This document shows positions 32,652-48,083 of a stretch of 64,000 nt of DNA, piece by piece. Position numbers and translations under genes: made by a program. Under the pieces are notes generated by a model. It was not told the origin of the DNA. It worked only from the letters and a program-made list of their open reading frames with translations, and did not search any database. How positions within the stretch are numbered: position 1 is the stretch's first letter; each line of letters begins with the position of its first letter. Origin of the DNA: Pontiella sp. (GTDB lineage Bacteria; Verrucomicrobiota; Kiritimatiellia; Kiritimatiellales; Pontiellaceae); NCBI GenBank assembly GCA_050290185.1, contig JBNKHE010000004.1, forward strand, positions 210,589 through 274,588, written 5' to 3'.

Positions 32652-32679
32652 GCCTAACACGGTAATTCGTGCGTTAGGT
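32652..32679 (+). other. array boundary site: minimal palindrome GCCTAAC-N14-GTTAGGT (perfect RYYYAAC / GTTRRRY pair)
   Basis: GCCTAACACGGTAATTCGTGCGTTAGGT. The core sequences are the same as those used by attC sites in the array (GCCTAAC at 42324 and 46355; GTTAGGC at 42030). Too short to be a normal attC. Confidence 0.5.
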
Positions 32680-32729
32680 GGACTTTCTCTACCTAATTAA
32701 CTGTTTATTTCAAAAAAAAGGATAAATCT

Positions 32730-34730
32730 ATGTCCAATAACACAAAGAATATAAAAATTAGCATTAAATACTGTTTAGCAATTACAATTCTAATGGTCTG
32801 CAGCTCAGCCAACGCGTACCAACAAATCTTTGTAGATAGAGATGGATCAGATACAAATAGTGGCTTGAGTGCTGACTCTCCGCTTCGAACATTCACTCAA
32901 GCAGTAACTAATGCTAATTATGCGGTGTCAAATGATCACCCTGATGGTGTCGAAATTATTTTAGGACCAGGAAAATTTGATGAGACCACTCATAGTAAAA
33001 CCAACACTTCGTGCGTAATCTGGAGACTAGCCAATAATGTTTCTGTCACGGGAGCAGGTTCTGGCAAGGGCACAAATTCAACACAAATTATAAATAACAT
33101 CGTTCCAGATGGTTATTATTATTACATACTCCTATTGGAACCCGGAAATAATTCTAGAATTCAAGATCTCTCTATTATCAGCCATCCTCAAGAAATGATC
33201 AAAGGCGGAGTTATCTGCATAGGATCATTTAGAGGCTGGCTATCTCAATTTCCCACATTATCTGAGGACCGTGTTTGTTTGCTTAAAAACATCTACATGG
33301 AATCGAATGATGCCGGAATTGGTATTGCTGGATATTATCCAGATCCCTACAGCTTAACATTCAATTGTTTTGATATGGATATCAATGTCGGAACTGATGG
33401 CGTTATTACCACATACCGTGATAACACCCGTATAAACTTGTTTAATTCGAGTGTGAAGGTGACAAGTTGGACTAACTCCATTCACGACCCACGAACTATT
33501 GGCTTAACAGCTATTAATTCAAGTGCTGAAATATTTGCTTATAATACTTCTATTTGGGCAATTGATGATGCCCCCGACAATGGAGCAACGTATGCCGACA
33601 GTTACTGTGTCGCGGCCTTTGATGAAGGAGTAGTTCGCACTCATAACTGCAATTTCTATAAAAGCTCAGCAACCAATGCTGTTCAGAATTCTTCTCACCT
33701 TCATACTGATCACACAATTAGCGCCGAGTATTATACAAATGGTATAATTGAACATTCCCTTAGTCGTTTCTTTATAGGAGATACAAATTTTAATATCGTT
33801 GCTTCTAATATTCATCCTGTAGTGCGAGGCTCTAATGATTATGAAGTAGTTAATCTTTACATTGACAAAGCAGCTGCCGGAAATATGACTGGAGTCGACT
33901 GGAATAATGCATATACAGATATTTATGATGCATTATCAAAGGTTGAGACTGGAGATTATACCCATGGAGCAAATTTGATCTTTGCGGGTGGTGATACACA
34001 TACAGTTACCAATGTGCTTAATCTTCCTTACGGAGTGTCCCTGATCGGTACTAACCCAACAAATTTAACAACAATATCGAATACCACTCCTACGTCCTGG
34101 ACCTATCAGTTTTTGACACAATCCTCCAACTTCACAGTTCTTGCAAATCTAGATCTTCAAACTACAGGGTTGGGAAATCTTCTTATCGGAGGAGCAAACA
34201 CCAATCAAGCTGCTACTGTAATTGATAATTGCCTAATGAGCTCTGACGACACAACAATTGGCTACATTGATGGTTATAAGCATGGCTCTATACTCTCCAT
34301 TTTTAATTCGGGCATAATCAGTTCACTGAATGGCATCGCAACTTATGCTGAGCATTTAAATATTGTTTCACAGAACACTTACATTGCCGCAGAGGGTAAC
34401 CATCCGAGTTATCCAGGATATTCGTGCGGAGTTTATGCATCACATGCCCGAATTCACTTTTATGGCACGTCCTCAAGCAATTCAACTATTGCAACCGCAA
34501 ATACTCAAAAAAACACTCTCTATCCTTACAATGGGCCAGTCTTCTCGGATAATGCTCGGATCTATCTTGAGAACTACCACTTAGATACTTCTGAAATGAA
34601 GGATATTACTAACTATACGATGAGAGCCGTTGGATTAACGGGTCATATACTTTATCGCAATTTAGACTTCTCACCCTCGATTACAACAAATGCATCATCG
34701 AGTATAACGGAATTGGTTGATTTCGACTAA
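32730..34730 (+). CDS. cassette 1: secreted 666-aa protein with two beta-helix-type modules
   Basis: Signal-like LAITILMVCSSANA. Two cap-like motifs, DRDGSDTNSGLSADSPLRTFTQAV and AAGNMTGVDWNNAYTDIYDALSKV, as seen in DUF1565/pectate-lyase-fold proteins. Confidence 0.6.
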   Translation: MSNNTKNIKISIKYCLAITILMVCSSANAYQQIFVDRDGSDTNSGLSADSPLRTFTQAVTNANYAVSNDHPDGVEIILGPGKFDETTHSKTNTSCVIWRLANNVSVTGAGSGKGTNSTQIINNIVPDGYYYYILLLEPGNNSRIQDLSIISHPQEMIKGGVICIGSFRGWLSQFPTLSEDRVCLLKNIYMESNDAGIGIAGYYPDPYSLTFNCFDMDINVGTDGVITTYRDNTRINLFNSSVKVTSWTNSIHDPRTIGLTAINSSAEIFAYNTSIWAIDDAPDNGATYADSYCVAAFDEGVVRTHNCNFYKSSATNAVQNSSHLHTDHTISAEYYTNGIIEHSLSRFFIGDTNFNIVASNIHPVVRGSNDYEVVNLYIDKAAAGNMTGVDWNNAYTDIYDALSKVETGDYTHGANLIFAGGDTHTVTNVLNLPYGVSLIGTNPTNLTTISNTTPTSWTYQFLTQSSNFTVLANLDLQTTGLGNLLIGGANTNQAATVIDNCLMSSDDTTIGYIDGYKHGSILSIFNSGIISSLNGIATYAEHLNIVSQNTYIAAEGNHPSYPGYSCGVYASHARIHFYGTSSSNSTIATANTQKNTLYPYNGPVFSDNARIYLENYHLDTSEMKDITNYTMRAVGLTGHILYRNLDFSPSITTNASSSITELVDFD

Positions 34731-34772
34731 AAGCCGCAATCACACATCCAAAAAAATAGGAATAAATAGCAA

Positions 34773-34860
34773 GTCGAACCAGCTCATAGACCCTACTTGG
34801 ACGACGCCCATCGATTCGGTCAAAGCCTGATTCCCAAGCGGATCATGAGTAACGTTGTGC
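34773..34860 (+). repeat. attC site (88 nt, type B)
   Basis: GTCGAAC CAGCTCATAGACCCTACTTGGACGACGCCC...GATCATGAGTAAC GTTGTGC. Near-identical left arm to the site at 42324. Confidence 0.75.
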
Positions 34861-34966
34861 ACAGATAATTTATCGGAGATAAATAACGAGTGAAAAGAGA
34901 GGTTCAAACCGCACAATCTATAGTGTCAAACGTTTATGCCCGCTCAGGTCACACGTAACGTTGGAA
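34861..34966 (+). repeat. right half of a long type-A attC (no left arm), directly abutting the preceding attC
   Basis: ACAGATAATTTATCGGAGATAAATAACGAGTGAAAAGAGAGGTTCAAACCGCACAATCTATAGTGTCAAACGTTTATGCCCGCTCAGGTCACACGTAAC GTTGGAA. Lacks AACCAGCGCGTGGACC. Confidence 0.7.
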
Positions 34967-34982
34967 ATTAAAAGGAGAACAG

Positions 34983-35612
34983 ATGAAAAAATTATTGATA
35001 GGACTATCGGCTATAGCGGCATCCACAGCTCTTGCATCCACAGTTGTACCCACAGAGCCTAAGGCCCAAGGAAAGAAACTGGCGGTACAGATAGTTAAAG
35101 TTGATTCAACCAAACATTACGACATGACATCTCCCGAATATCCCGACATTCTTCTAGCCCCAGATAAATTGCTAAGTGATGAATCCAATACGATAACACA
35201 ATATCCAGTGTTATATGGAGAACCTGGAACATCAGTTACAAATGATCAAACTGAAGCGATTAGCTATGTTGATGGCTATTCCATTGTTGAGGGAAAGGTA
35301 GTTCCTGAAGAACACGTCCATAAGATTGGATTATTTATTTCTGCGGATATCTCCGAACTTAAAGGCAACGCAGTCAAACTAAACCTTAACATTCAAAATG
35401 AGCAGTTTTTTGGATATGACGAACAAACTGTGGACGGTAATCAGAAAGTGAAACTAGCCTTCTTCAACAGCCAAAGCCACAATACACCGATAACGTTGGC
35501 AATAGGAAACTGGCTAGTGCTCGGTGGCATATTGAATGAGACAACCAGTTCAAGTGCTATCTCACACACTTCTGTCTATCTGGTTCGCGTCATAGACCCA
35601 TTGCAGGAATAA
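34983..35612 (+). CDS. cassette 2: secreted hypothetical protein (209 aa)
   Basis: RBS AAAAGGAGAACAG-ATG. Signal peptide MKKLLIGLSAIAASTALAS. Followed by an attC. Confidence 0.65.
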   Translation: MKKLLIGLSAIAASTALASTVVPTEPKAQGKKLAVQIVKVDSTKHYDMTSPEYPDILLAPDKLLSDESNTITQYPVLYGEPGTSVTNDQTEAISYVDGYSIVEGKVVPEEHVHKIGLFISADISELKGNAVKLNLNIQNEQFFGYDEQTVDGNQKVKLAFFNSQSHNTPITLAIGNWLVLGGILNETTSSSAISHTSVYLVRVIDPLQE

Positions 35613-35617
35613 AATAT

Positions 35618-35766
35618 TTCCAGCCAGCGCGTGGGGACCCTACGCGGCCGAAAGCGAAGCGACAGATAATTTATGAAAGAAATAACGAGAGAAACGAGTG
35701 GTTCAAAACGCAGAATTTTCATGCCTAACGCATAAGTCCCGCGCAGGTCACACGTAACCGTTCGGC
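35618..35766 (+). repeat. attC site (149 nt, long type A, degenerate R'')
   Basis: TTCCAGC CAGCGCGTGGGGACCCTACGCGG...module...CCCGCGCAGGTCACACGTAACC GTTCGGC. Confidence 0.75.
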
Positions 35767-35777
35767 ATAAGGAAACA

Positions 35778-36125
35778 ATGAAAATACTATCCATCGTAAC
35801 AATAAGTTCTCTTTTTCTTTTTGGATGCAATCCATCCTCTCAAAACAGCAAATGCATAAAGAAGATAGAGGTTAGCTCTGTCACTATTGTTGATCCAACC
35901 ATTCCTACGGGCGTATCTGGGTCAACCAATACAAAAGGAGGACTATCCGAGGAAAGAGAATCTCCATACAAAACCTATTATAAAACTGACTTCAGTCACA
36001 TTTACATCGAGTCAGATGAGGAATGGTTAAGAATAACCCGAGTATTCAAAAAATCCGGAGTAAAAGAAACAACGGTCGATTATTATAAGCCAGATTCGGT
36101 GATAAAATTTACGACTAAAGATTAA
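35778..36125 (+). CDS. cassette 3: small lipoprotein (115 aa)
   Basis: Lipobox SSLFLFGCN. RBS AAGGAAACA-ATG. Confidence 0.6.
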   Translation: MKILSIVTISSLFLFGCNPSSQNSKCIKKIEVSSVTIVDPTIPTGVSGSTNTKGGLSEERESPYKTYYKTDFSHIYIESDEEWLRITRVFKKSGVKETTVDYYKPDSVIKFTTKD

Positions 36126-36134
36126 ACATAATGA

Positions 36135-36224
36135 GCCGAACCAGCGCGTGGACCTTACGCGGTAAAACGCACAGTTTTCATGCCCAACGCATAAGTCCCG
36201 CGCAGGTCACACGTAACGTTCTTG
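36135..36224 (+). repeat. attC site (90 nt, short type A)
   Basis: GCCGAAC CAGCGCGTGGACCTTACGCGGTAAAACGCACAGTTTTCATGCCCAACGCATAAGTCCCGCGCAGGTCACACGTAAC GTTCTTG. Confidence 0.85.
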
Positions 36225-36347
36225 CGGACGCTGCGCTTGCCGCAGAACCAGGCCGCTGCACCAACATTCCGGCTGGCCGTCCGCAGGCTCCGCCTGCTAC
36301 CGTCCACCCGGAAAGTTGGTGAGCGCCGCATTAGAAACGGAGATAAT

Positions 36348-36851
36348 ATGACGGAAGAAACAAAACAGAAGTTTATAGATCATCCTGCACCCAGCATCGG
36401 CTTGTTTACGCTTCTCGTTGTAATTATCTGCTTTCTGATTACCGTAATCCCAATGGCAATATCGGACATGCCCAAAGAAGAGCTTGGTTCACCTTCCGCA
36501 ATCGGAATTTATGCTGTCCTTGGCTTTGCGATTGCCATCCTGTGTTTCTACCTGTGGCCACTCTACACCACATATTACATCGTTGATGATAATGGCATAA
36601 CGATAAAATATGGTCCATGGACACGTGTATCCCAATGGAATGAATTCAAAATGGTATATTGGCAAAAGGGGATGTTTGTCTCAAAGATCGGGGTGCCTTC
36701 TATCACCCCATGTGTACGCCTCTCAAATGGTCTTGTCCTTCCAAGGAAACACAAGACATGGGGACTATACATTACCCCAAATGATCCGGAAGCATTCATC
36801 CGTAAGATCGAGTTGTTTGCTCCAGAATTAACCAAAGAGATGATAAAATAG
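36348..36851 (+). CDS. cassette 4: membrane protein, two TM helices + possible bacterial PH-like domain (167 aa)
   Basis: Start at MTEETKQKF (RBS ACGGAGATAAT). Two hydrophobic helices, then YYIVDDNGITIKYGPW... The PH-domain call is tentative. Confidence 0.55.
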   Translation: MTEETKQKFIDHPAPSIGLFTLLVVIICFLITVIPMAISDMPKEELGSPSAIGIYAVLGFAIAILCFYLWPLYTTYYIVDDNGITIKYGPWTRVSQWNEFKMVYWQKGMFVSKIGVPSITPCVRLSNGLVLPRKHKTWGLYITPNDPEAFIRKIELFAPELTKEMIK

Positions 36852-36854
36852 GAT

Positions 36855-37002
36855 TTCTAACCAGCGCGTGGACCTTACGGGACCGCATGCGCATCGCAGA
36901 TAATTTATCGGAGATAAATAACGAGTGAAACGAGAGGTTCAAACCGCACAGTTTTCATGCCTGACGTTGGTAGTCCCGCGCAGGTCACACATAACGTTGG
37001 AT
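36855..37002 (+). repeat. attC site (148 nt, long type A)
   Basis: TTCTAAC CAGCGCGTGGACCTTACGGGA + 58-nt module + ...CCCGCGCAGGTCACACATAAC GTTGGAT. Confidence 0.85.
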
Positions 37003-37024
37003 GCAGAAAACAAGGAGAGTAAAG

Positions 37025-37453
37025 ATGGAAGACAAAGTTTCAGAAGAGCAAGAATTTCATGCAGGGCAAGCATCAACTCCGGCTGTAGAGGTTGCGCCCA
37101 CACCCGAATCGTCGCCGATTGCTGGATTTACTAATGAGCAAAGAACGCTTGCGCTCTGCGCATATCTGATCCCGTTAGTAACCAGTTCAAACTTCATTGC
37201 TCCCCTCATTATCTGGCTGTTAAAAAAAGGTGAAGACTCATACGTCGAAAATCATGCCAAGGAATCGCTCAACTTTCAGATTACGTTTGTGATCTTTGTC
37301 TTCGTTGCATGGCTGAGCATCTTTTTATTAATAGGTGCACTTTTGTTCCCTGCAGTCATAATCACTTATATAGTTTTTGGCATCATTGCCTGCGTCAAAG
37401 CGTACAAGGGTGAAGAATACAGAATCCCACTCTGCATCCGCTTCATCAAATAG
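37025..37453 (+). CDS. cassette 5: DUF4870-like membrane protein
   Basis: Start chosen at the ATG preceded by AAGGAGAGTAAAG; the alternative ATG at 37001 lies inside the attC R' box. Motif LCAYLIPL...IIWLLKKGEDSYVENHAKESLNFQITF. Confidence 0.65.
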   Translation: MEDKVSEEQEFHAGQASTPAVEVAPTPESSPIAGFTNEQRTLALCAYLIPLVTSSNFIAPLIIWLLKKGEDSYVENHAKESLNFQITFVIFVFVAWLSIFLLIGALLFPAVIITYIVFGIIACVKAYKGEEYRIPLCIRFIK

Positions 37454-37495
37454 TCAAAAAATACCATAAGAAGACCTCTTCAGATAAATAAGGAC

Positions 37496-37641
37496 ATCCA
37501 ACCAGCGCGTGGACCTTACGCGGCCGCACGCGCAGCGCAGATAATTTATCGGAGATAAATAATGAGTGAAACGAGAGGCTCAAAACGCACAATCTATCGT
37601 GCCAAACGTTTATTTCGCGCAGGTCACACGTAGCGTTGGCT
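37496..37641 (+). repeat. attC site (146 nt, long type A)
   Basis: ATCCAAC CAGCGCGTGGACCTTACGCGG + module + AAAACGCACAATCTATCGTGCCAAACGTTTATTTCGCGCAGGTCACACGTAGC GTTGGCT. Confidence 0.88.
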
Positions 37642-37668
37642 TTCATAAAATCCTAAAAGGAGCAAGCA

Positions 37669-37923
37669 ATGGAAATTGAACAAATTATTATCACATTAGT
37701 TATAGGTGGTGTTGCGGGCTGGCTAGCTGGAATTCTCTTCAAGGGAGGGGGATTCGGCCTCGTTGGAAATATAATTGTAGGGTTGCTTGGAGCCGTGTTA
37801 GGAGGATGGTTATTTAGAGTTCTTAATATTTCAGTTGGTGGTGAATGGGTAGGCCCAATTGTTACATCGACGATAGGAGCAATCGTTCTCCTCTTTGCGA
37901 TAAGCTTCGTGAAAAGGAAATAG
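37669..37923 (+). CDS. cassette 6: GlsB/YeaQ/YmgE-family small membrane (stress) protein
   Basis: 84 aa. GGVAGWLAGILFKGGGFGLVGNIIVGLLGAVLGGWLF is the family's glycine-zipper pattern. RBS AAAAGGAG. Confidence 0.8.
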   Translation: MEIEQIIITLVIGGVAGWLAGILFKGGGFGLVGNIIVGLLGAVLGGWLFRVLNISVGGEWVGPIVTSTIGAIVLLFAISFVKRK

Positions 37924-38011
37924 CCAACCAGCGCCTGAACCTTACGCGGTAAAACGCACAATTTTCATGCCTAACGCATATGTCCCGCGCAGGTTACACG
38001 TAACGTTCGGT
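37922..38011 (+). repeat. attC site (90 nt, short type A); R'' overlaps the stop codon
   Basis: AGCCAAC CAGCGCCTGAACCTTACGCGGTAAAACGCACAATTTTCATGCCTAACGCATATGTCCCGCGCAGGTTACACGTAAC GTTCGGT. Confidence 0.85.
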
Positions 38012-38021
38012 AAAAACATAA

Positions 38022-38348
38022 ATGAAGCAACCCATATCAACCTCTGAAACTCGACCCAAACGGAATCGACTGTTGTTTATGTCCACACTAGTTGCTCTTA
38101 CTGGATTTTTTGGAATTCCTCTCACGTTCCAAATAATCGCCAAGGCAGACTTCTTCAGTATTCTTTTCTTTCTGCCATGCATTCCTCTGATGTTCAACCT
38201 AATCGGACTAGGCTTAGTTGCTTGCGATAAACTCAAGACAAAGGGACTCATTATTTACCTAATTCCATGCTTCATTCTATCATTTTTCGTAATAGCAGGC
38301 ACAGCCGGCATGCTCCACTTCTTTATTGTGTATGAATCAATGCCCTAG
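38022..38348 (+). CDS. cassette 7: small polytopic membrane protein (108 aa)
   Basis: Three or four hydrophobic helices and no recognisable domain. Followed by an attC. Confidence 0.55.
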   Translation: MKQPISTSETRPKRNRLLFMSTLVALTGFFGIPLTFQIIAKADFFSILFFLPCIPLMFNLIGLGLVACDKLKTKGLIIYLIPCFILSFFVIAGTAGMLHFFIVYESMP

Positions 38349-38381
38349 AAAGATGAACAAAACATCTCCAATAATAATGAA

Positions 38382-38476
38382 ACCGAACCAGGGCATGGAC
38401 CCGACAGAGTCCGGCAGTTAATTTAACGGCAAAGAACCACTCCCCCCATTTTTGCGGGTCACGCCTAACATTAGAC
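38382..38476 (+). repeat. attC site (95 nt, divergent; R' ATTAGAC)
   Basis: ACCGAAC CAGGGCATGGACCCGACAGAG...TTTTTGCGGGTCACGCCTAAC ATTAGAC. G-to-A change at the first R' position. Confidence 0.65.
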
Positions 38477-38484
38477 AAAAATAG

Positions 38485-39042
38485 ATGATTAATCTCCGTC
38501 CATTCCAATCCTCAGACATTTCCTGTTTTAATGAGTTCTCAGGGGATGATTGGACGGTTTTTAATTGGTTGGATGAGATCGGGCGGCCGATTATAAAGGA
38601 AAAGTTTTTGAAAGATCTAGAGAACCCTGAGTTGCATTCTTACATCGCGGTTGAATCGAACCAGCAAGAAGTCGTCGGGCATCTTCAAATAAAAGAAATG
38701 GAACCAGGAGTTGGTCGCTTTCACAGGTTTGTAGTAAGCAAAAAAGAGAAAAGAAGAAAAGGAATTGGAAGAGATATATTGTCCCAAGCGCTTAAAATCG
38801 CGTTCGAAGAATTTGAGTTCGACCTGATGACTCTGGGAGTTTTTGATATTAATACTCCAGCAATCAGTTTCTGCGAATCTATGGGCTTTCAACCACACTC
38901 CTCAAAGTTGATTGATTATCGCTTTAACGATAATCTCACCCACCCTTTGAATATGACGCTCCCGAAAGAAAATTGGGAGTCTAACAAGGCATGTGAGAGG
39001 AATGCCGAGATCGCTCCCGCTCCTCGCCATCTCTCCACTTGA
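38485..39042 (+). CDS. cassette 8: GNAT-family N-acetyltransferase
   Basis: 185 aa. Acetyl-CoA-binding pattern FVVSKKEKRRKGIGRDILSQAL. The last ~21 codons lie inside the following attC. Confidence 0.8.
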   Translation: MINLRPFQSSDISCFNEFSGDDWTVFNWLDEIGRPIIKEKFLKDLENPELHSYIAVESNQQEVVGHLQIKEMEPGVGRFHRFVVSKKEKRRKGIGRDILSQALKIAFEEFEFDLMTLGVFDINTPAISFCESMGFQPHSSKLIDYRFNDNLTHPLNMTLPKENWESNKACERNAEIAPAPRHLST

Positions 39043-39050
39043 CGTTGGGC
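38979..39050 (+). repeat. attC site (72 nt, divergent, perfect core sites) overlapping the GNAT 3' end
   Basis: GTCTAAC AAGGCATGTGAGAGGAATGCCGAGATCGCTCCCGCTCCTCGCCATCTCTCCACTTGAC GTTGGGC. Confidence 0.7.
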
Positions 39051-39061
39051 AAAGAAAAAAT

Positions 39062-39667
39062 ATGTACATACCTGATAGATTTAAGATGAATGACAGGGAG
39101 GTAGTTAATACCTTCATTCGTAAGCATAATTTCGGACTGCTTGTCACAACCGACGGAAAAACCATCGATGAGACCTTAACACCCTTCCTAATTTCAGAAA
39201 CCGAAGAGTGTCTGTACGGCCATATTGCACGGGCAAACCCGCAATGGACGAAATGGGATGACTCAACAATAGCCAAAGTGATGTTCACCGGCCCTCATTC
39301 TTATATTTCCCCAAAGTTTTATGAGTCTGAATTGAACGTACCGACGTGGAATTATACGGCGGTTTCAATCAGCGGAGAAATTAAGACCCAAAATAACAGG
39401 CCTGAAATTATTGAATTTCTAGATGCCTTGGTTACCCAACATGAAGCACCGGAAGCTCCATGGAATCTAGATAAAGATGATGAACGCTATATGAAGCTAC
39501 TCGACGGGATCGTTGTCTTCAGACTCCAAATTAAGGATGTCGAAGCATCGTATAAATTAAACCAAAATAAGAAAGTAGAGGATCAGTTGAGTGTTATAGC
39601 GGCTCTGGAAAGTTCAGATAATCCAATTGATAACGAAGTTGCTAAAATGATGAAGCAGAACATATAA
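39062..39667 (+). CDS. cassette 9: PaiB-family FMN-binding protein
   Basis: Start MYIPDRFKMNDREVVNTFIRKHNFGLLV (typical PaiB N-terminus), 201 aa. The track ORF's upstream extension runs through the attC. Confidence 0.8.
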   Translation: MYIPDRFKMNDREVVNTFIRKHNFGLLVTTDGKTIDETLTPFLISETEECLYGHIARANPQWTKWDDSTIAKVMFTGPHSYISPKFYESELNVPTWNYTAVSISGEIKTQNNRPEIIEFLDALVTQHEAPEAPWNLDKDDERYMKLLDGIVVFRLQIKDVEASYKLNQNKKVEDQLSVIAALESSDNPIDNEVAKMMKQNI

Positions 39668-39669
39668 TA

Positions 39670-39818: not shown

Positions 39819-39828
39819 GAGAGAAAAT

Positions 39829-41600: not shown

Positions 41601-41667
41601 GAAAGAAAAATTTAAGAAACCTGCCTAATGCAGAGATTTGAAAACATTAAAATTATAAGGAGATAGA

Positions 41668-41883
41668 ATGAAAAAAATCGGCGGTACAATATTCTTTTTT
41701 GGAGCGGGATCCATAGTTCTATATTTTGTGCATATGGAATTTATCATCTTATCTTGGATTGACATGTGGGGCCCTTTAGTCGGTTGGATAATTCGAGGAG
41801 TGTTACTTGTGGTTGGTGGTGTTCTTTGGCTCATTGGAAGGCCTGATACGGAACAAAAACGACAGTCTGAATTTGCAGAATAA
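41668..41883 (+). CDS. cassette 12: small two-TM membrane protein (71 aa)
   Basis: RBS TAAGGAGATAGA-ATG. Two hydrophobic helices. Confidence 0.55.
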   Translation: MKKIGGTIFFFGAGSIVLYFVHMEFIILSWIDMWGPLVGWIIRGVLLVVGGVLWLIGRPDTEQKRQSEFAE

Positions 41884-41888
41884 TTTAT

Positions 41889-42036
41889 ATCGAACCAGCG
41901 CGTGGACCTTGCGCGGTCGCACGCGCTGCGCAGATAATTTATCTGCGATAAATAACGAATGAAATGAGAGGTTCAAACCGTACAATCTATCGTGCCAAAT
42001 GCTTATTTCCCACGCGGGTCACGCCAAACGTTAGGC
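41889..42036 (+). repeat. attC site (148 nt, long type A)
   Basis: ATCGAAC CAGCGCGTGGACCTTGCGCGG + module (ATCTGCGATAAATAACGAATGAAATGAGAGGTTC) + ...CCCACGCGGGTCACGCCAAAC GTTAGGC. Confidence 0.85.
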
Positions 42037-42107
42037 ACCTATAAAAAAGGAACAAAAATGAAAAACAGATCAAACGAATATCAGTCGCCCAAACTAGTAA
42101 AATCATT

Positions 42108-42329
42108 GTGATTTTATACGTAGTATTCAGCCTGCTGTATTCTCTAATCGGTATTCCAATGATTATCTTTGGTGGTTCTGAAATGAAGATAATGGGCTTC
42201 ATGTATCTCTTCATGCCAATTCTCGCAGGCATCTTTGGGTTTATCGGTTGCTGGGTTTACAACCTGGTTGCAGGGAAATTCGGTGGTGTTGAATTTGAAG
42301 TAAAAGACATTGGAGAAACAATGGCCTAA
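42108..42329 (+). CDS. cassette 13: small membrane protein; possibly the frameshifted 3' part of a ~90-aa gene beginning at 42058
   Basis: GTG-start ORF of 73 aa with two TM helices. A well-placed ATG (42058, RBS AAAAAGGAAC) opens a 17-codon ORF whose TGA overlaps this GTG (TTGTGA). Confidence 0.5.
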   Translation: MILYVVFSLLYSLIGIPMIIFGGSEMKIMGFMYLFMPILAGIFGFIGCWVYNLVAGKFGGVEFEVKDIGETMA

Positions 42330-42411
42330 CCAGGTCATTGACCCTACTTGGACAACGCCCGTTTTTGAAGGCAAAGTCTGAGTTCCAAGAAGGTCACACG
42401 TAACGTTCGAC
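42324..42411 (+). repeat. attC site (88 nt, type B); R'' overlaps the stop codon
   Basis: GCCTAAC CAGGTCATTGACCCTACTTGGACAACGCCC...AAGAAGGTCACACGTAAC GTTCGAC. Confidence 0.8.
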
Positions 42412-42426
42412 TGAGAGGAACATTAT

Positions 42427-43170
42427 ATGATCAAACCAAAAACATTCGTATCTTCAGTAATCCTAACCATGGTTGCGTTAATCTCTCAACATGCTGACGG
42501 ACAGGTATTGTTTGGCAGCACCAACGATGGTTCCGGCTCTGGAACTCATTCAGCAGGGCATTTAACCGGACATATAATCTACGTTTCTGAAGAAGCCATC
42601 CTCACCCATATCGGCATCATTTTTGATCAGCCTGGAGGAACGTGCAGAGCAGGAATATACGCAGACTCGGAAGACCAGCCCGGGAAATTACTTGGCGAGA
42701 TTCCTGCGCTTCGCATACGTGATCGCGGAGCTACGGAACTTCCCATTGCCGAACCACTGGTTTTATCCCCTGGTAACTACTGGGTTATGATTGCATGTAA
42801 CCGAGATACGAAGATTTCAAAGTCACAATCAGCTTCAACCAAGGTTTGTTATCGTCCCTTTGTCTTTGACGAAACCATGCCGGATCCCATAGGTATAACA
42901 ACTAATTATATGACGACCTCAACCGAAGACGTTTATCTCAAGTGCAACTATATTAAAGAAGACGTCTGCCCTTTCTCCTCGGCACCAGCAGGAGAGATTT
43001 ACTTCCCAACAATCAAAGGGAAAGTATATCAGGTTCAGTTTACAGAAGATATAGAATCACCCAACTGGCAACCTTTTGCACCTCCCTTTACGGCAACCGG
43101 AGCAAACACCAATATATTTTTCTCAACACGCAATACACCAAAACGGCGGTACCGGGTTATTGTAAAATAG
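42427..43170 (+). CDS. cassette 14: secreted protein (247 aa) with C-terminal '...W...RYRV' beta-sandwich-like tail
   Basis: Signal peptide SSVILTMVALISQHADG. Tail KGKVYQVQFTEDIESPNWQPF...KRRYRVIVK resembles the tail of the chromosomal gene at 63554. Confidence 0.6.
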   Translation: MIKPKTFVSSVILTMVALISQHADGQVLFGSTNDGSGSGTHSAGHLTGHIIYVSEEAILTHIGIIFDQPGGTCRAGIYADSEDQPGKLLGEIPALRIRDRGATELPIAEPLVLSPGNYWVMIACNRDTKISKSQSASTKVCYRPFVFDETMPDPIGITTNYMTTSTEDVYLKCNYIKEDVCPFSSAPAGEIYFPTIKGKVYQVQFTEDIESPNWQPFAPPFTATGANTNIFFSTRNTPKRRYRVIVK

Positions 43171-43175
43171 AATTA

Positions 43176-43311
43176 GTCGAACCAGCGTGTGGACCTTACG
43201 CGAGCGCAGATAATTTATCAGAGAAAAAACGAGTGAAGCGAGAGGCTCAAAACGCACTCTCCGTCGTGCCTGACGTTGATGGTCCCGCGCAGGTCACACC
43301 AGACGTTCGCT
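43176..43311 (+). repeat. attC site (136 nt, long type A with shortened left part of the module)
   Basis: GTCGAAC CAGCGTGTGGACCTTACGCGAGCGCAGATAATTTATCAGAGAAAAAACGAGTGAAGCGAGAGGCTC...CCCGCGCAGGTCACACCAGAC GTTCGCT. Confidence 0.8.
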
Positions 43312-43323
43312 AACAGGAATATT

Positions 43324-43986
43324 ATGATACAAAAATTAATCAAGAACACTCTGATCCCAACGCTGACCTTAATCGGATTAGCAGGATGCCAAGTTTACCA
43401 TCATGCCGAAATTTCTGGGAACGTAATTCACGACCCACAGCTAGGTTGGAATGGTTATACTGTGAATATTCCAGACGGTTACTACATTATACCAAAAAAG
43501 GTCGCAGCCGCATCAGCTGGCCCCCTTGAGCATCCGGTTAACTGGTTGGTGAAGGAACGCGATATTTACACGCTCTCTCTAGCACTCAATTTTGATGAGC
43601 GCTTTCTATTTAAGAGCGATGATGAGCAATCATACATTTTATTTGCTTCTGAGCGGCTCGATTTTATCAAGAGCCTCAATCAATTCTCAACCGTAATAAA
43701 AAAGAGAGTAATGTATAATATAAGGGACTACCAAAAGGTCCGGTTAAATGACAGCGATGCATTGTTCGAGCAAATGACCATCAACGGCATGATGGCCTGC
43801 CGCGTAAGCGGACGGCTACGGCCCTATTTCAAAAAGAATTATCCCACGATTTTTTATGAAGGTTATTTTTTCCTAGGCCACTTAAACGAAACTTTTTGGG
43901 TTGAGGGGATTTCATCGGCAAAAGGTCGAACTGAGCTGCAACGCGGAGTAAAAGAGATGGCGGAAAGCCTGATGAATCCATTATAA
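43324..43986 (+). CDS. cassette 15: lipoprotein (220 aa)
   Basis: Start MIQKLIKNT. Lipobox LTLIGLAGCQ. The track ORF's upstream extension crosses the attC. Confidence 0.6.
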   Translation: MIQKLIKNTLIPTLTLIGLAGCQVYHHAEISGNVIHDPQLGWNGYTVNIPDGYYIIPKKVAAASAGPLEHPVNWLVKERDIYTLSLALNFDERFLFKSDDEQSYILFASERLDFIKSLNQFSTVIKKRVMYNIRDYQKVRLNDSDALFEQMTINGMMACRVSGRLRPYFKKNYPTIFYEGYFFLGHLNETFWVEGISSAKGRTELQRGVKEMAESLMNPL

Positions 43987-43995
43987 TTCAAGATA

Positions 43996-44144
43996 AGCGA
44001 ATCAGCGCGTGGACCTTACGCGGGGCATACGCGCAGCGCAGATAATTTATCGGAGATAAATAACGAGTGAAACGAGAGGTTAAAAACGCATGATTTTCAT
44101 GCCAGACGTTTATGAGCAGCGTCGGGTCACACGTAGCGTTGGGA
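43996..44144 (+). repeat. attC site (149 nt, long type A; R'' AGCGAAT)
   Basis: AGCGAAT CAGCGCGTGGACCTTACGCGG + module + ...GCAGCGTCGGGTCACACGTAGC GTTGGGA. Confidence 0.8.
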
Positions 44145-44154
44145 GAATGTAAAC

Positions 44155-44949
44155 ATGAAAGTATATCATATTGATGCATTCACCGACGACCTGTTTAAGG
44201 GGAATCCTGCTGGAGTTATCATTCTGAACAATGACGACATCAGCGATGCTCTCAAACAGAGCATCGCAAGAGAATTGAAGCACTCAGAGACTGCGTTTGT
44301 CCTCATAAAAGAAGGACATGTAAATTTAAGGTGGTTTACACCGGAGCGGGAAGTTGACCTTTGTGGTCATGCAACCATTGCGTCAGCTCATATCTTATGG
44401 GAGTCTGGAGTATTTGATTCTCAGGAGAAAGTGGACTTCCAAACTAGATCAGGCACTCTTCGAGCTATTCACAATAGAGGGAAAATTGAATTGGATTTCC
44501 CTCAGCTGTTTGTAGATGAATGTGAGCAAAACATAATCCTAAACGAAGCTTTTAGGATAGAGCCAGTTTATACGGGAAAGAACTCCAAAAGATACCTGCT
44601 CCAAATAGAGAGTCCTGATGAGCTTAGAAAATTACAGCCTGATTTTGAGTTGCTGAAGAAAGCAGATCTTGGAGCATTCATGATAACCTGCAGATCAGAT
44701 CGACCGGGTTATGATTTTCTTTCGCGATTCTTTGCCCCATGTGTTGGAATTCATGAAGACCCGGTTACCGGATCTGCACATTGTTACCTTGCTCCATACT
44801 GGGGTAGGATTCTCAATAAAAAAACCATGGTTGGTTTTCAGGAATCAAGCCGTACAGGAATCGTTGAATGTGAGCTCCAGGAAAAACATAGATTAAAAAT
44901 ATCAGGACAAGCTAAAACTGTATTTGAAGCTGAAATGAATATCACCTAA
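44155..44949 (+). CDS. cassette 16: PhzF-family isomerase-like protein
   Basis: 264 aa. N-terminus MKVYHIDAFTDDLFKGNPAGVI and a DapF-like two-domain pattern (ETAF..., CGHATIA). Confidence 0.85.
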   Translation: MKVYHIDAFTDDLFKGNPAGVIILNNDDISDALKQSIARELKHSETAFVLIKEGHVNLRWFTPEREVDLCGHATIASAHILWESGVFDSQEKVDFQTRSGTLRAIHNRGKIELDFPQLFVDECEQNIILNEAFRIEPVYTGKNSKRYLLQIESPDELRKLQPDFELLKKADLGAFMITCRSDRPGYDFLSRFFAPCVGIHEDPVTGSAHCYLAPYWGRILNKKTMVGFQESSRTGIVECELQEKHRLKISGQAKTVFEAEMNIT

Positions 44950-45007
44950 CCAGAGCATTCACCCTATCGTTTTCTCCGCGCGCTCAGGGTGATGCTTAAC
45001 GTTGGCC
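44944..45007 (+). repeat. attC site (64 nt, minimal form, perfect core sites); R'' overlaps the stop codon
   Basis: ACCTAAC CAGAGCATTCACCCTATCGTTTTCTCCGCGCGCTCAGGGTGATGCTTAAC GTTGGCC. Stem GCATTCACCCT/AGGGTG(A)ATGC with one bulged base. Confidence 0.8.
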
Positions 45008-45018
45008 AGAAATAACAA

Positions 45019-45450
45019 ATGAACATTACGAAACTAACAGAAGCTGATCTCCCAGCCCTTGCATCTCTCTACACGCAATTCTGGGGCGAAGAGTCATCAG
45101 TGGATAAAATGCAGTCCACATTTGCTAAACTCCAAGATAATCCTGACTACACCTTCTTAGCAGCACGTCTTGATGATCAAATTGTTGGCTCTGTAATGGG
45201 TGTAGTTTGTCATGAGCTATACGGGGACTGTAAACCATTCATGGTCGTTGAAGATATGATAATTGATAAGACTGTACGACGGCAAGGTATCGGTTCCCTT
45301 TTAATGAATTCAATTGAGGAAAAAGCGAAAGAGAGAGAGTGCTGTCATCTTATATTAGTGACCGATACAGACCGATATGATGCACGTCAGTTCTATGAGT
45401 CATTGGGATTTGATCCAGAGAAGAACAAAGGATTCAAAAAGAAACTATAA
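45019..45450 (+). CDS. cassette 17: GNAT-family N-acetyltransferase
   Basis: 143 aa. MVVEDMIIDKTVRRQGIGSLLMNSIEEKAKE is the Q/RxxGxG/A acetyl-CoA motif. Confidence 0.85.
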   Translation: MNITKLTEADLPALASLYTQFWGEESSVDKMQSTFAKLQDNPDYTFLAARLDDQIVGSVMGVVCHELYGDCKPFMVVEDMIIDKTVRRQGIGSLLMNSIEEKAKERECCHLILVTDTDRYDARQFYESLGFDPEKNKGFKKKL

Positions 45451-45453
45451 CAG

Positions 45454-45686
45454 GGCCAACCAGTGCGTGGACCTTACGCGGCCGAAAGCGACACGTAGTG
45501 AGGCTGGAGTTCACAGCAATGAAGCGCGGAATGGCAACCGAAGATAATTTCCGCATGCGCGAAGCCATAATTTCCAGAAGGGAAATAGTGAACAGAGAGA
45601 ACGGTTCAAGAACGAAGAGGTTCAAAACGCACAATTTTCTCATGCCCAACGCATATATCCCGTTCAGGTCACACGTAACGTTCGAC
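45454..45686 (+). repeat. attC site (233 nt, extra-long type A variant)
   Basis: GGCCAAC CAGTGCGTGGACCTTACGCGGCCGAAAGCGA...~170 nt...GGTTCAAAACGCACAATTTTCTCATGCCCAACGCATATATCCCGTTCAGGTCACACGTAAC GTTCGAC. Confidence 0.7.
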
Positions 45687-45766
45687 AAAGATATCTAAAC
45701 TAAACTATCTGGCTTTAACGTTATTAACGTTTATATGCGTCCAGCCATGCAACAGAAAGGGAACCT

Positions 45767-46351
45767 ATGAAACACACGATCGTACTAATCGTTGCAATTC
45801 TGCCTGCACTTATTTGGGGTTGCACAACAAAGAGCATTCAAGCTCCTGCTATTGCGCTATCCCAAGATCAGGCGGAAAACAATGCAGATTTAAGAGCAAT
45901 GTTACCTAGGGGTACATCGATTGAAGATGCTAAGCAGATTATATTGGCTCAAGGATATGACTGGGAGTTGAAAACAACACGTTCAAAGCTAGACGGGACT
46001 CCAACACCATCCAACCCTTATGCCATATGCACCAAGCCTAACACTGAACCTGTAACCATCGCATTTTCTTCTGACAATACAGTGGCTATAGTCAACATCC
46101 TCGAAACACCAAAAACTACTAAGATCGAAAACATTGTCTACAGTGCAATTGCTGACTATCCGAAGGAAAACGGAAGGAATCCGAACACCACCGAAGAGAT
46201 CATAGAGTATATTTTGAAAAACAATCCGAATGTCGATAAGGCTGACTTAGGATCTATTTCCTTAATAACAAGACCCAACGGAAAGAAACAGCTACGGTTT
46301 AATCCTCGAGACTACGCGATAAGTTATGTTGACTTGCCTAAATTACAATAA
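45767..46351 (+). CDS. cassette 18: lipoprotein (194 aa)
   Basis: Lipobox LPALIWGCT. RBS AAAGGGAACCT-ATG. Confidence 0.6.
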   Translation: MKHTIVLIVAILPALIWGCTTKSIQAPAIALSQDQAENNADLRAMLPRGTSIEDAKQIILAQGYDWELKTTRSKLDGTPTPSNPYAICTKPNTEPVTIAFSSDNTVAIVNILETPKTTKIENIVYSAIADYPKENGRNPNTTEEIIEYILKNNPNVDKADLGSISLITRPNGKKQLRFNPRDYAISYVDLPKLQ

Positions 46352-46354
46352 CAG

Positions 46355-46443
46355 GCCTAACCAGCGGGCTGAGCTTACCCGGCACAACGCCCGTCGATTA
46401 AGTGAAGTTGATTTCCCGGGTCAGTTCACCCGTAACGTTCGAT
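46355..46443 (+). repeat. attC site (89 nt, divergent)
   Basis: GCCTAAC CAGCGGGCTGAGCTTACCCGGCACAACGCCC...TTTCCCGGGTCAGTTCACCCGTAAC GTTCGAT. Confidence 0.78.
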
Positions 46444-46465
46444 TAATAAAGGAAAGAGTGAGATT

Positions 46466-46915
46466 ATGATACCAACGCAATGGACCACCCAAAGCGGGCA
46501 GAAGGATCTTCCAGAACTTTTGAAGAAACTGGAACAAGAAGGTGGCTCAATTGTTGAGTATAGATCCGTGATCTCTGCAGTAATCTTCTATCGGATATCA
46601 TCAAAGCTGTATTGGGTTTCCAGAGATAAAAGCCAATCATTCCAGGGACTCATTGTTTCCATACCAACCATGCTCCTTGGGTGGTGGTCTATACAGGGAT
46701 TCTTTTGGACCTTTTCAGTTATAGTCAGCAACGTTTTGGGCGGTATTGATGTAACAGAGTTGTTCACGACTCCACCAGAGAATGGAGAGCTAAGTGATCG
46801 CATAATTAGAAGGATTGAACAGCAACGGAAAAATCAGCAATGGTCGTTTGTTGGTGGATTACTTCTCTTACTGGCAATCATCATTATTTTTTTCGTGATG
46901 CCCTGTTTAAAATAA
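46466..46915 (+). CDS. cassette 19: membrane protein (149 aa), no recognisable domain
   Basis: RBS AAAGGAAAGAGTGAGATT-ATG. Two central TM helices and one C-terminal TM helix. Confidence 0.55.
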   Translation: MIPTQWTTQSGQKDLPELLKKLEQEGGSIVEYRSVISAVIFYRISSKLYWVSRDKSQSFQGLIVSIPTMLLGWWSIQGFFWTFSVIVSNVLGGIDVTELFTTPPENGELSDRIIRRIEQQRKNQQWSFVGGLLLLLAIIIIFFVMPCLK

Positions 46916-46918
46916 TAA

Positions 46919-47064
46919 ATCGAACCAGCGCGTGGACCGTGAATCGCACCAAGGCGCTATTTCCCCTTAAGGGAAGTTATCTATCGCTGCGCTTTCGGCG
47001 CGGAACAACGCATTTTTGATTCGGTCAACGTTTAGCTCAACGCGGGTCACACGTAACGTTGGCA
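46919..47064 (+). repeat. attC site (146 nt, type-A arms with a different central segment)
   Basis: ATCGAAC CAGCGCGTGGACCGTGAATCGCACC...CTCAACGCGGGTCACACGTAAC GTTGGCA. Confidence 0.8.
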
Positions 47065-47078
47065 GTAAAAGGTAAAAC

Positions 47079-47867
47079 ATGAAGAAAAACATAATTGCAA
47101 CGGTGATAATTTGTTTGCTGATGGAAATACACGTCACAGCGGCAAACGAGAATTTCCATACATTTACCGATACGAAAGGACGAAGCATTCGAGCTAAACT
47201 GCTTAAATTCGAGGCCTCAACCGGGCGGGTCTTCATCTTGACTGATAGCGGTAACAGGACATGGATGAATCCTTCTGCCTTATCGTATGAATCCGCAGCC
47301 TATGTCCGCAGATGGATACAGGCCAACCAGTTTCTTTCTGAGAATTATCTACGCGTATCAATCAATAAACGGTTCATTGGTGATGAAATTTGCTATGACT
47401 TGACGATGGAAAACCGCACGAAAAACCCGCTACCTTCTTTGAAGGTAGACTATGTTATTTATATCAACCGGAAGGGGTATAACGGGACGCCTGATGAGAT
47501 GCGCTGTATTGGAGGGACAATCACGATAGACAATTTTGCCGCCCGCAAAAAGGTCGTAAAGACAACAAAAGAGGTATCCTTGGAGAAGCAGATGCGGGCC
47601 GCTTATACGACTGGCCTTAACGGCACTCTGACAACAGATAACATGAAGATTCGCGAGGATAAGCCCTTAGGGATATGGTTTAAGATCTATGGTCCCCCTC
47701 TGGATGGTGTTCGTTCGGTGCGTGATGCTTCCTTTCCAAATGCGTTAAAGGAGCATGTCGTGTGGGCAAAACATGTGTTTATTTCGCAAGATACGGATTT
47801 GAGTCCGGATGTGGATTCGATGTCAGGTCTGGATTCTCAGCTGGATAATCTGAATTCGATGATGTAG
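47079..47867 (+). CDS. cassette 20: secreted protein (262 aa) with N-terminal SHD1-like motif
   Basis: Signal peptide IICLLMEIHVTAA. FHTFTDTKGRSIRAKLLKFEASTGRVFILTDSGNRTWMNPSALSYESAAYVRRW resembles SHD1-type domains (tentative). Confidence 0.6.
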   Translation: MKKNIIATVIICLLMEIHVTAANENFHTFTDTKGRSIRAKLLKFEASTGRVFILTDSGNRTWMNPSALSYESAAYVRRWIQANQFLSENYLRVSINKRFIGDEICYDLTMENRTKNPLPSLKVDYVIYINRKGYNGTPDEMRCIGGTITIDNFAARKKVVKTTKEVSLEKQMRAAYTTGLNGTLTTDNMKIREDKPLGIWFKIYGPPLDGVRSVRDASFPNALKEHVVWAKHVFISQDTDLSPDVDSMSGLDSQLDNLNSMM

Positions 47868-47880
47868 CAATGAACTAATT

Positions 47881-48083
47881 GTTCACCCAGCGCGAGGGGC
47901 CTTCCGCGGACGGAGCATCGCGGAGGAGGTTGCGCAAGGAACGAGAGTCCCCAAAATGCATTCGCCATCGCCGAAGGCTTCATCATTCGCTGAAGCTACG
48001 GCAGACGAGATGGCGGACAAGCCTGTTTTAATGCCTGATATGAATTGATTGGAGTAGGGACAAGATCGCACGTAAGATTCTCC
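47881..48083 (+). repeat. terminal, degenerate, GC-rich attC-like site (~203 nt) at the array/chromosome junction
   Basis: GTTCACC CAGCGCGAGGGGCCTTCCGCGG...GGGACAAGATCGCACGTAAG ATTCTCC. Arms are recognisably related to AACCAGCGCGTGGACC / GGTCACACGTAACGTT, but both core triplets are mutated. Confidence 0.5.

Follow-up and report, generated by a model that had tools for sequence, protein, structure and literature searches.

How did a run of co-oriented, mostly unfamiliar genes, nearly every one closed by a similar imperfect palindrome, come to lie between host genes of a Pontiella chromosome, and which enzyme could have put it there? The stretch analysed here, called the window throughout, is a 64-kb segment of contig JBNKHE010000004.1 (308 kb), and the element in question is an island of about 15.4 kb with sharp edges at 32.65 and 48.08 kb, carried by a host of the Pontiellaceae (Kiritimatiellota, within the Planctomycetes–Verrucomicrobia–Chlamydiae, or PVC, group). 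The island is a set of clustered attC sites without integron integrase (CALIN), with attC sites of a homogeneity like that of the Vibrio cholerae repeats (VCR), and we put the probability that it is an integron-type cassette array at about 0.9; the whole statement, which adds that the array is serviced in trans at the present day, we hold at slightly better than even odds.

Measured over successive 1-kb intervals, the DNA between 33 and 48 kb has 39–47% GC against 50–59% elsewhere in the window, and the array as a whole has 42.9% GC between two flanks of 55.3% and 55.4%. All 20 open reading frames (ORFs) of the island lie on the plus strand behind short leaders, the minus-strand ORFs inside it being short and overlapping; 18 of the 20 are directly followed by an attC site, and one cassette holds two genes. 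Promoter-like sites are not enriched (25 found, 31.9 expected). A first-pass annotation, made from the letters alone, had described an AT-richer island of plus-strand ORFs with short leaders, one ORF per repeat, high similarity from site to site, a host of non-proteobacterial appearance and a CALIN-type arrangement, and all of this is borne out by the GC profile, the ORF list and the taxonomy, with 18 sites packed into 12.3 kb and no integrase nearby. Its 20 ORFs also stand, two of them sharing one cassette, and its 20 full attC sites become 18 well-formed ones together with a 3' fragment and one or two degenerate copies.

The repeat family was delimited by its arms. The 5' arm AACCAGCGCGTGGACC, allowing up to 3 mismatches, occurs in 14 copies in the island, all on the plus strand, with one more match of 3 mismatches outside it on the minus strand; shuffled sequences are expected to give 0.6 matches, and none reaches 15. 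These arms pair with 3' arms like GGTCACACGTAACGTT lying 56–225 nt downstream, which gives the 18 well-formed sites of 64–233 nt (64–149 nt in 17 of them, 233 nt in the remaining one), with conserved arms and central parts that vary in both sequence and length, so that a short form (core of about 82 nt), a long form (about 140 nt) and longer forms can be told apart. A covariance model (CM) was built from 32 short-form sites of the window and of related loci, the latter found by genome and metagenome scans and numbered here with an L. Its matches with E<0.05 all fall at 34773–47064 and in one orientation, the best match elsewhere in the 64 kb having E=0.33, and thus the repeat is not scattered in the window in the manner of a dispersed palindrome. 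Besides the 18 sites there are a fragment at 34861–34966, a degenerate copy at 47881–48083, a mini-palindrome at 32652–32680 and a remnant near 41250. A scan of the window with Rfam gave no match at the gathering threshold, which is uninformative, given that Rfam holds no attC family.

Cassette boundaries and site architecture

In integrons the crossover takes place inside the GTT of R', and therefore the bases that follow GTT belong to the next cassette and should be complementary to the R'' of that same cassette rather than to that of the preceding site. Across the window and six other Pontiella loci, the four variable bases of R'' are the exact complement of the bases after GTT in the preceding site at 27 of 41 junctions, against complementarity to the GTT flank of their own site in 1 of 55; none of 100,000 permutations reached 27 matches, the permutation maximum being 11. 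Within the window, 8 of 18 pairs were scored as perfect by script, and two further junctions match by eye, from the 34861–34966 fragment to attC 2 and from attC 2 to attC 3 (with a one-base offset allowed), which brings the window cassettes that obey the boundary rule to 10. This pattern shows that the units were assembled cassette by cassette via crossover in the core triplet.

The same pattern is unexpected for repetitive extragenic palindromes (REP), bacterial interspersed mosaic elements (BIME) or miniature inverted-repeat transposable elements (MITE), and this is a difficulty for the notion that the repeats are palindromes of such a kind, or transcription terminators, that merely resemble attC. 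They are indeed imperfect palindromes between genes, and their individual folds are only modestly more stable than those of shuffled sequences (z-scores from +0.14 to -2.2). Nevertheless, they occupy one island in one orientation within 64 kb, each site comes after an ORF, the R-box halves pair cassette-wise and not within the repeat, and the repeat is conserved while the cassettes differ wholly between species. Terminator-like sites are not enriched either (18 found, 15 expected). We regard this explanation as effectively refuted already and give it hardly any weight.

The boundary rule alone cannot tell whether an ORF moves with its upstream or its downstream attC. At L020, L035 and L038, a single AT-rich ORF followed by one attC lies between GC-rich host genes, and these single-cassette insertions settle the matter in favour of the canonical polarity of ORF first and attC after it. 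The only cassette common to two loci (L009 and L014, 85% amino-acid identity) is flanked on either side by attC sites that differ between the loci and is uninformative on polarity. We also observed that this ORF (L009:3891-4145 and L014:2101-2355), present in two arrays of one metagenome-assembled genome (MAG), carries identical R-box bases next to attC sites of different types, and that hybrid sites mixing the arms of two subfamilies exist (e.g., in L008 and L014); together, the shared cassette and the hybrid sites suggest exchange within attC sites.

The architecture of the sites was examined in a gap-free alignment of bottom-strand arms holding the 48 distinct sites among 55 paired sites extracted from the window and other Pontiella loci. 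Conservation of the AAC and GTT triplets is complete or at least 90%, and their three core pairs form in 99.3% of the cells, with the outer four R-box bases being variable and not always strictly purine or pyrimidine (e.g., GTCGAAC). The bottom-strand spacers are conserved and non-complementary: 45 of 48 sites have GTTA or GTTT on one arm, and 44 of 48 have CTG on the opposite arm. Inward of them come a 5-bp L box, two 5-bp stems and a variable centre. In the favoured register, where a single base, C in 40 of 48 sites, bulges out of the R''/L'' arm of the bottom strand, 94% of the cells are paired and 12 of 18 pairs have changes on both sides; the outermost L-box pair alone has 17 double-sided changes, switching among C-G, G-C and A-U. 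These measures were reached by none of 500 shuffles, and slid controls pair in only 27–41% of cells. Owing to 56 G-T wobbles in the L box, its pairing drops from 94% of cells on the bottom strand to 72.5% on the top strand. The repeats therefore behave as attC sites, with an R''-L''...L'-R' layout and a better-folded bottom strand.

A second register, the one of minimum energy, bulges a T on the R'/L' arm; it pairs 90% of the cells, one of its L-box pairs fails in 20 of 48 sites, and it is disfavoured by the covariation. The attC-like architecture proposed in the first-pass annotation, with R''/R' cores, an unpaired spacer, a bulged L box and a variable loop, is thus supported; its placement of the bulged base, as the A of GGTC-A-CAC, is that of the minimum-energy register, and covariation favours the opposite arm.

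Sites and cassettes along the island

The features are listed below in window coordinates with their strand; CM scores are in bits, the ORF is given with its length or protein family where there is one, and a slash marks the start of the array.

32646–32706 (+): left junction, TTTTCTGCCTAA, then the 29-nt mini-palindrome GCCTAAC..GTTAGGT (32652–32680) and CTTTCTCTACCTAATTAACTG/TT; from sequence
32730–34730 (+): cassette ORF 1, 666 aa, no family
34773–34860 (+): attC 1, short form, R'' GTCGAAC ... R' GTTGTGC; CM 73.6 bits, E 1.8e-22
34861–34966 (+): 3' fragment of a long-form attC, directly fused to attC 1, R' GTTGGAA; CM 24.6 bits
34983–35612 (+): cassette ORF 2, 209 aa, weak Secretin match; Pfam
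35618–35766 (+): attC 2, long form, AAC mutated to AGC; arm pairing, CM
35778–36125 (+): cassette ORF 3, 115 aa
36135–36224 (+): attC 3, short form, archetype of the family; CM 102.6 bits
36222–36851 (+): cassette ORF 4, 209 aa with TTG as start; in a sibling MAG the call begins at 36348 (167 aa)
36855–37002 (+): attC 4, long form; arm pairing, CM
37001–37453 (+): cassette ORF 5, DUF4870; Pfam
37496–37641 (+): attC 5, long form; arm pairing, fold, CM
37669–37923 (+): cassette ORF 6, Transgly_assoc, 84 aa; Pfam
37922–38011 (+): attC 6, short form; CM 96.3 bits
38022–38348 (+): cassette ORF 7, 108 aa
38382–38476 (+): attC 7, subfamily 2 (CAGGGCATGGACC...); CM 53.8 bits
38485–39667 (+): two-gene cassette, GNAT acetyltransferase (38485–39042) and FMN_bind_2 protein (about 38993–39667), no attC between the genes; Pfam
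39670–39818 (+): attC 8, long form; arm pairing, CM
39829–40170 (+): cassette ORF 10, 113 aa
40177–40267 (+): attC 9, short form; CM 95.9 bits
40467–41168 (+): cassette ORF 11, 233 aa, weak PEP-CTERM motif, unusually long leader of 200 nt
41169–41456 (+): stretch without ORF, attC remnants ATAACGTTTCAGAACCAGCC near 41250 and ACGTTAGTC at 41429; no CM match
41453–41600 (+): attC 10, long form; arm pairing, CM
41668–41883 (+): cassette ORF 12, 71 aa
41889–42036 (+): attC 11, long form; arm pairing, CM
42108–42329 (+): cassette ORF 13, 73 aa
42324–42411 (+): attC 12, short form, related to attC 1; CM 69 bits, repeat family D13
42427–43170 (+): cassette ORF 14, 247 aa
43176–43311 (+): attC 13, long form; arm pairing, CM
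43324–43986 (+): cassette ORF 15, about 220 aa, start according to Logan contig L045
43996–44144 (+): attC 14, long form; arm pairing, CM
44155–44949 (+): cassette ORF 16, PhzF family, 264 aa; Pfam
44944–45007 (+): attC 15, divergent type of 64 nt, bulge on the canonical arm; CM 37.6 bits, fold
45019–45450 (+): cassette ORF 17, GNAT acetyltransferase; Pfam
45454–45686 (+): attC 16, extra-long form of 233 nt; arm pairing, CM
45767–46351 (+): cassette ORF 18, 194 aa
46355–46443 (+): attC 17, short and divergent, with a G bulged on the canonical arm; CM 67 bits, fold
46466–46915 (+): cassette ORF 19, 149 aa
46919–47064 (+): attC 18, long divergent form; arm pairing, CM
47079–47867 (+): cassette ORF 20, 262 aa, last cassette
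47881–48083 (+): degenerate terminal attC (CACCCAGCGCGAGGGGCC ... GATCGCACGTAAGATTCTCC); arm matches with 4 mismatches, no CM match

The cassette content, with two GNATs, PhzF, DUFs and mostly ORFans for the rest, is typical of integrons, and NCBIfam and PADLOC gave no matches among the cassette proteins without a known family. In the two-gene cassette the reading frames overlap and the R'' of its attC is not matched to the preceding R', as would fit two cassettes that have fused. In the region of the PEP-CTERM-like cassette (40264–41456), the leader holds a promoter-like site at 40285–40312 (10 of 12 matches), and the approximately 290 nt on the 3' side of the ORF are devoid of any recognisable attC except for the small remnants listed.

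The long-form attC sites (about 136–149 nt) correspond to the short form enlarged by an insert of about 55 nt with the conserved core GCAGATAATTTATCGGAGATAAATAACGAGTGAAACGAGAGG, of which there are copies at 34858–34883, 36893–36918, 37534–37559, 39708–39733, 41491–41516, 41927–41952, 43203–43228 and 44035–44060. This core holds a small palindrome and what appears to be a degenerate second 5' arm, and the CM aligns the 3' 90 nt of the long forms like complete short sites. At 34773–34966, attC 1 is followed at once, with no ORF between, by the 3' two-thirds of a long-form attC, an arrangement suggestive of a cassette's recombination into the interior of another site.

On its left the array has an AEC-family transporter gene, 140 nt from the first cassette, and on its right the degenerate last site adjoins the start codon of an ABC-transporter ATPase gene (start at 48087). 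The left-flank AEC protein is 72% identical to that of Pontiella sulfatireligans and 65–70% identical to other named Pontiellaceae and Pontiella proteins. Further out, the flanks (window 14240–22724 and the annotation of L001) are rich in polysaccharide-degradation genes (GH115, GH10, GH43, a sugar transporter of the major facilitator superfamily and an AraC regulator), which fits the Pontiella lifestyle and thereby supports the taxonomic assignment.

Relatives, empty sites and the left junction

A genome scan with a degenerate 20-mer of the 5' arm, one genome per species, gave 20 loci, 14 of them in MAGs from several studies labelled Pontiella, Pontiellaceae or Verrucomicrobiota, and nine being contigs of a single MAG; those with paired arms or CM matches are arrays or single cassettes of the same attC family as in the window. 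Six matches outside the PVC group (the non-Pontiella matches include Sphaerochaeta, Nitrospiraceae, Janthinobacterium, Chloroflexi and Hydrogenedentota) are single and without a convincing CM match, those inspected lying in coding sequence, and were treated as chance; L011, one of the 14, and the metagenome match L029 lie in coding sequence, equally without a convincing CM match, and are likewise put down to chance. Scans of two viral collections for the attC pattern gave 2 and 0 matches, and the 2 look like chance. Among the other loci of the family, none of the 20 cassette proteins of the window was found. Some attC cores, in turn, are identical or nearly so between MAGs, such as the core of attC 3, which is identical to that of the attC of L020 in another MAG, and for two window sites the best match outside the window has arms of 98% identity.

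The locus is not the same in all relatives, given that in three of them the AEC gene is directly followed by the ABC_tran–UPF0014–NAD kinase genes, with gaps of 1, 172 and 85 nt, as an empty site:

L049, Pontiella sp. A1A2.bin.3: AEC protein 80% identical to that of the window, empty site
L051, metagenome contig: AEC protein 79% identical, empty site
L053, P. sulfatireligans: AEC protein 72% identical, empty site

No attC was found in these three AEC–ABC_tran gaps, nor any CM site in the L049 and L053 loci, of about 21 kb each. This adjacency in three relatives makes the 15.4-kb array a lineage-specific insertion. As side observations, L051 carries at 300–2100 a separate array of three sites, about 8 kb upstream and beside an Rce1-like gene, of the variant subfamily CAGCGGTTAGAGCC...GGCTCACACGTAACGTT; and in P. 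sulfatireligans (L053:13491-15057), there are, 2.5 kb downstream of the empty site, a Y1_Tnp gene (IS200/IS605-type) and a fragment of the IS110 family.

In contigs of the same species from several samples, both junctions and the cassette order are reproduced wherever the contigs overlap. A look-up of four cassette proteins for within-species polymorphism returned only fragments with the same order, one protein not being on record. These contigs also bear on whether foreign low-GC DNA could have been misjoined into a Pontiella contig, by faulty assembly or a chimeric bin. The sharp drop in GC, the repeats that break the assemblies of sibling MAGs and the left end of the sibling contig L040, which differs from the window, could be taken that way. 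Nevertheless, independent MAG and Logan assemblies from several samples reproduce both junctions with 100% identity of the proteins and the right part with 99.98% identity of the DNA, and in other Pontiella MAGs, of other studies, this attC family likewise lies between host genes, so that we consider an artefact the most improbable of the explanations weighed here.

The sibling contig just mentioned (L040, JBNKOG010000125.1) matches window positions 44031–50348 at 99.98% identity, and its first 319 nt (within L040:1-330) are unrelated GC-rich DNA. This DNA encodes the N-terminus of an IS110-family transposase, abuts a truncated long-form attC and joins the window sequence at 44031; the transposase homologue P0003 carries PF01548, and the closest match is from a Pontiellaceae bacterium. 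The IS1111-attC group of IS110-family insertion sequences (IS) is said to target attC sites, and the L040 transposase gene set directly against a truncated Pontiella attC resembles it; only 319 nt of the element were assembled, and the join is either an attC-targeting IS of this kind or an assembly join through the shared repeat.

At the left junction of the window, whose sequence is TTTTCTGCCTAATCAACTGTT, the array starts at CTTTCTCTACCTAATTAACTG/TT, that of L021 at CTTTTCTGCCTAATCAACTG/TT (reverse strand, about 7330–7360) and that of L020 at GTTTCCTGTCTAATCAACTG/TT (reverse strand, about 4975–5000), and hence nearly the same approximately 20 nt (TTTTCTGCCTAATCAACTG/TT) precede the first cassette at three unrelated loci, with the conserved end AACTG/TT in the three arrays; the left end of L051 shares only the shorter motif TTTTGCCTAAC. 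The empty site of P. sulfatireligans (L053:10990-11020) carries TTTTGCCTAAT just before the ABC_tran start codon, and the left and right junctions of the window, when joined, roughly rebuild this sequence. A weak promoter-like site (32621–32649, 9 of 12 matches) is found at the array head. Judged from its sequence, the left junction could be an attI-like landing pad, a host motif preferred by the recombinase or part of a larger mobile unit.

The recombinase and the standing of the array among integrons

The absence of an integrase from the window, noted in the first-pass annotation, was confirmed by tblastn and Pfam. With IntI1 and XerC sequences as queries, tblastn against the window returned nothing below E=0.5. 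Pfam found no recombinase among the 20 island ORFs and the scanned outside ORFs of at least 220 aa, in agreement with the precomputed annotations of the flanks; the families seen there were metabolic, transport, glycoside-hydrolase, kinase and sigma-factor ones, with cassette-type families in the island. There is thus no integron integrase within 32 kb upstream and 16 kb downstream of the sites, and no tyrosine recombinase or pseudogene of one in the window. In other MAGs, Pfam found only housekeeping genes on the array flanks, and none of the four array left ends (window, L020, L021 and L051) has an adjacent integrase.

In the mechanism that we propose, the bottom strand of attC would fold into a hairpin made up of a 7-bp R box (the conserved AAC/GTT plus four variable pairs), a short spacer that stays unpaired, an L box whose R''/L'' arm carries a single extrahelical base, and a stem-loop that varies. 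An integron-type tyrosine recombinase would cut within the conserved GTT/AAC triplet, and cassettes would leave as circles and re-enter at another site. We infer that the enzyme is an IntI homologue, which would be encoded elsewhere in the genome or arrive on a mobile element, so that the array could still be serviced in trans.

Several results weigh against this reading. The boundary rule fails at eight window junctions and several sites are degenerate, which is what decay of parts of the array would produce. Energy minimisation prefers the other register, which puts the bulge on the opposite arm, and the bulged base is mostly C where the canonical one is G. In the window, the loci of the genome and metagenome scans, and the same-species contigs, which are not whole genomes, tblastn found no integron integrase, and the unchanging order in the overlapping same-species contigs gives no sign of ongoing shuffling.

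Part of this would follow if the array were a fossil CALIN, built by an integron integrase since lost from the lineage, with its cassettes now fixed genes and its attC sites decaying relics. The lack of an integrase in the DNA examined, the degenerate or fragmentary sites at 34861–34966, 41169–41456 and 47881–48083, the disobedient junctions and the identical cassette order in all same-species contigs recovered speak in its favour, as does the report of numerous CALINs in genomes that have no IntI (Cury et al. 2016, PMC4889954). Against it, most arms are intact, the R-box halves are still perfectly complementary in most cassettes, the presence of arrays and single cassettes at different loci suggests repeated insertion, and attC cores that are identical or nearly so between MAGs whose cassettes are wholly different are hard to square with a long neutral decay. 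In summary, the degenerate sites and the invariant within-species order favour decay, while the intact arms, the near-identical attC cores beside unrelated cassettes and the R-box complementarity favour recent or current activity; our judgement leans somewhat towards an array recently or currently active, and a fossil is the less probable account, albeit one to be taken seriously.

Canonical attC sites are reportedly folded from the bottom strand, with extrahelical bases on the R''/L'' arm. Like these (e.g., that of aadA7), the Pontiella sites have the R''-L''...L'-R' order, AAC/GTT cores, an unpaired spacer, a variable terminal structure and, in the register favoured by covariation, an extrahelical base on the R''/L'' arm, and the crossover at the GTT triplet makes the R-box halves cassette-specific. 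They differ in that sequence similarity to canonical sites stops at the core triplets, a single well-supported bulge (C) takes the place of the classical T and G pair, there are extra internal-loop asymmetries, and the sites reach 233 nt against a classical range of about 57–141 nt.

At the level of the array, we find the V. cholerae superintegron to be the closest in appearance, in that both are chromosomal, the Pontiella array having about 20 co-oriented and mostly ORFan cassettes, AT-richer than the host, and one dominant attC family of highly similar sites common to the lineage, with cassette content that differs by species. By size and attC homogeneity, the Pontiella array resembles a sedentary chromosomal integron without its head, given that, unlike the superintegron, it has no intI and no recognised attI or cassette promoter Pc at the head, where a housekeeping transporter gene lies instead; the host belongs to the Kiritimatiellota and not to the Gammaproteobacteria, the sites come in short, long and longer forms, and the extrahelical base is mostly C.

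A CALIN is defined as two or more clustered attC sites without an integron integrase (Cury et al. 2016, PMC4889954; Neron et al. 2022, PMC9024848), a definition that the Pontiella array fits exactly. CALINs have up to 114 sites and only 6.6% of them exceed ten, low similarity between attC sites is typical of them, and 95% have no intI pseudogene nearby (Cury et al. 2016, PMC4889954); the array shares the last feature and departs from the typical CALIN in being large and in the greater homogeneity of its sites. Single attC sites lacking an integron integrase (SALINs), and the attG sites at which they arise, reflect the dissemination of single cassettes into genomes, with the attG sites of IntI1 sharing only the consensus GWT (Loot et al., bioRxiv 10.1101/2022.09.11.507474). 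The single cassettes of L020, L035 and L038, between housekeeping genes and far from any integrase, are like SALINs; unlike attG, the three Pontiella left junctions share about 20 nt, which suggests a far more specific landing sequence.

A speculative and rather doubtful prospect is that of a dispersed integron in the Pontiellaceae. Its many arrays and single cassettes would share one attC family at several loci, at least three of them starting at ..CTAATCAACTG/TT and none of those seen being linked to an integrase, and one unlinked integrase or non-canonical recombinase would serve multiple attI-like pads in trans. Going further, a non-IntI enzyme, e.g., a host recombinase of Xer type, could run the cassette logic itself, the Pontiellaceae keeping dispersed arrays and single cassettes with no array-linked integrase. 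The four left ends without an adjacent integrase, three sharing the approximately 20-nt junction and L051 only TTTTGCCTAAC, would suit such an enzyme, and so would a bulged base that differs from the canonical G. Nevertheless, the structural hallmarks that IntI is known to read are all present (AAC/GTT cores, spacer, structured bottom strand and, in the register favoured by covariation, the R''/L'' bulge), the crossover maps to the GTT triplet as it does for IntI, and an integrase that has gone unseen reflects limited genome coverage and is not evidence of absence. In addition, integrons have been documented in non-proteobacterial phyla, Verrucomicrobia and Planctomycetes among them (Cury et al. 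2016, PMC4889954), so that IntI-bearing integrons are on record in neighbouring PVC phyla. We consider a non-IntI enzyme improbable, and an IntI homologue acting in trans remains our preferred reading.

The integron concept itself is left unchanged by this array. What it does is extend well-formed arrays of homogeneous, VCR-like sites to the Kiritimatiellota, a group of marine polysaccharide degraders for which no description of integrons was found in the literature searched; no paper found there links Pontiella with integrons, and where Kiritimatiellota and integrons occur together it is incidental. With a clean, lineage-specific attC family, attC models, so far trained mostly on Proteobacteria, could be improved, and a CALIN of this size, its sites homogeneous and intact and its empty site defined in relatives, makes a good case for the questions of how CALINs originate and whether servicing in trans takes place. 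The left-junction sequence, in turn, by its recurrence hints at site-specific landing pads outside the classical attI, and a dispersed integron in the Pontiellaceae, if true, would break the organisation of one intI, one attI and one array by which integrons are defined.

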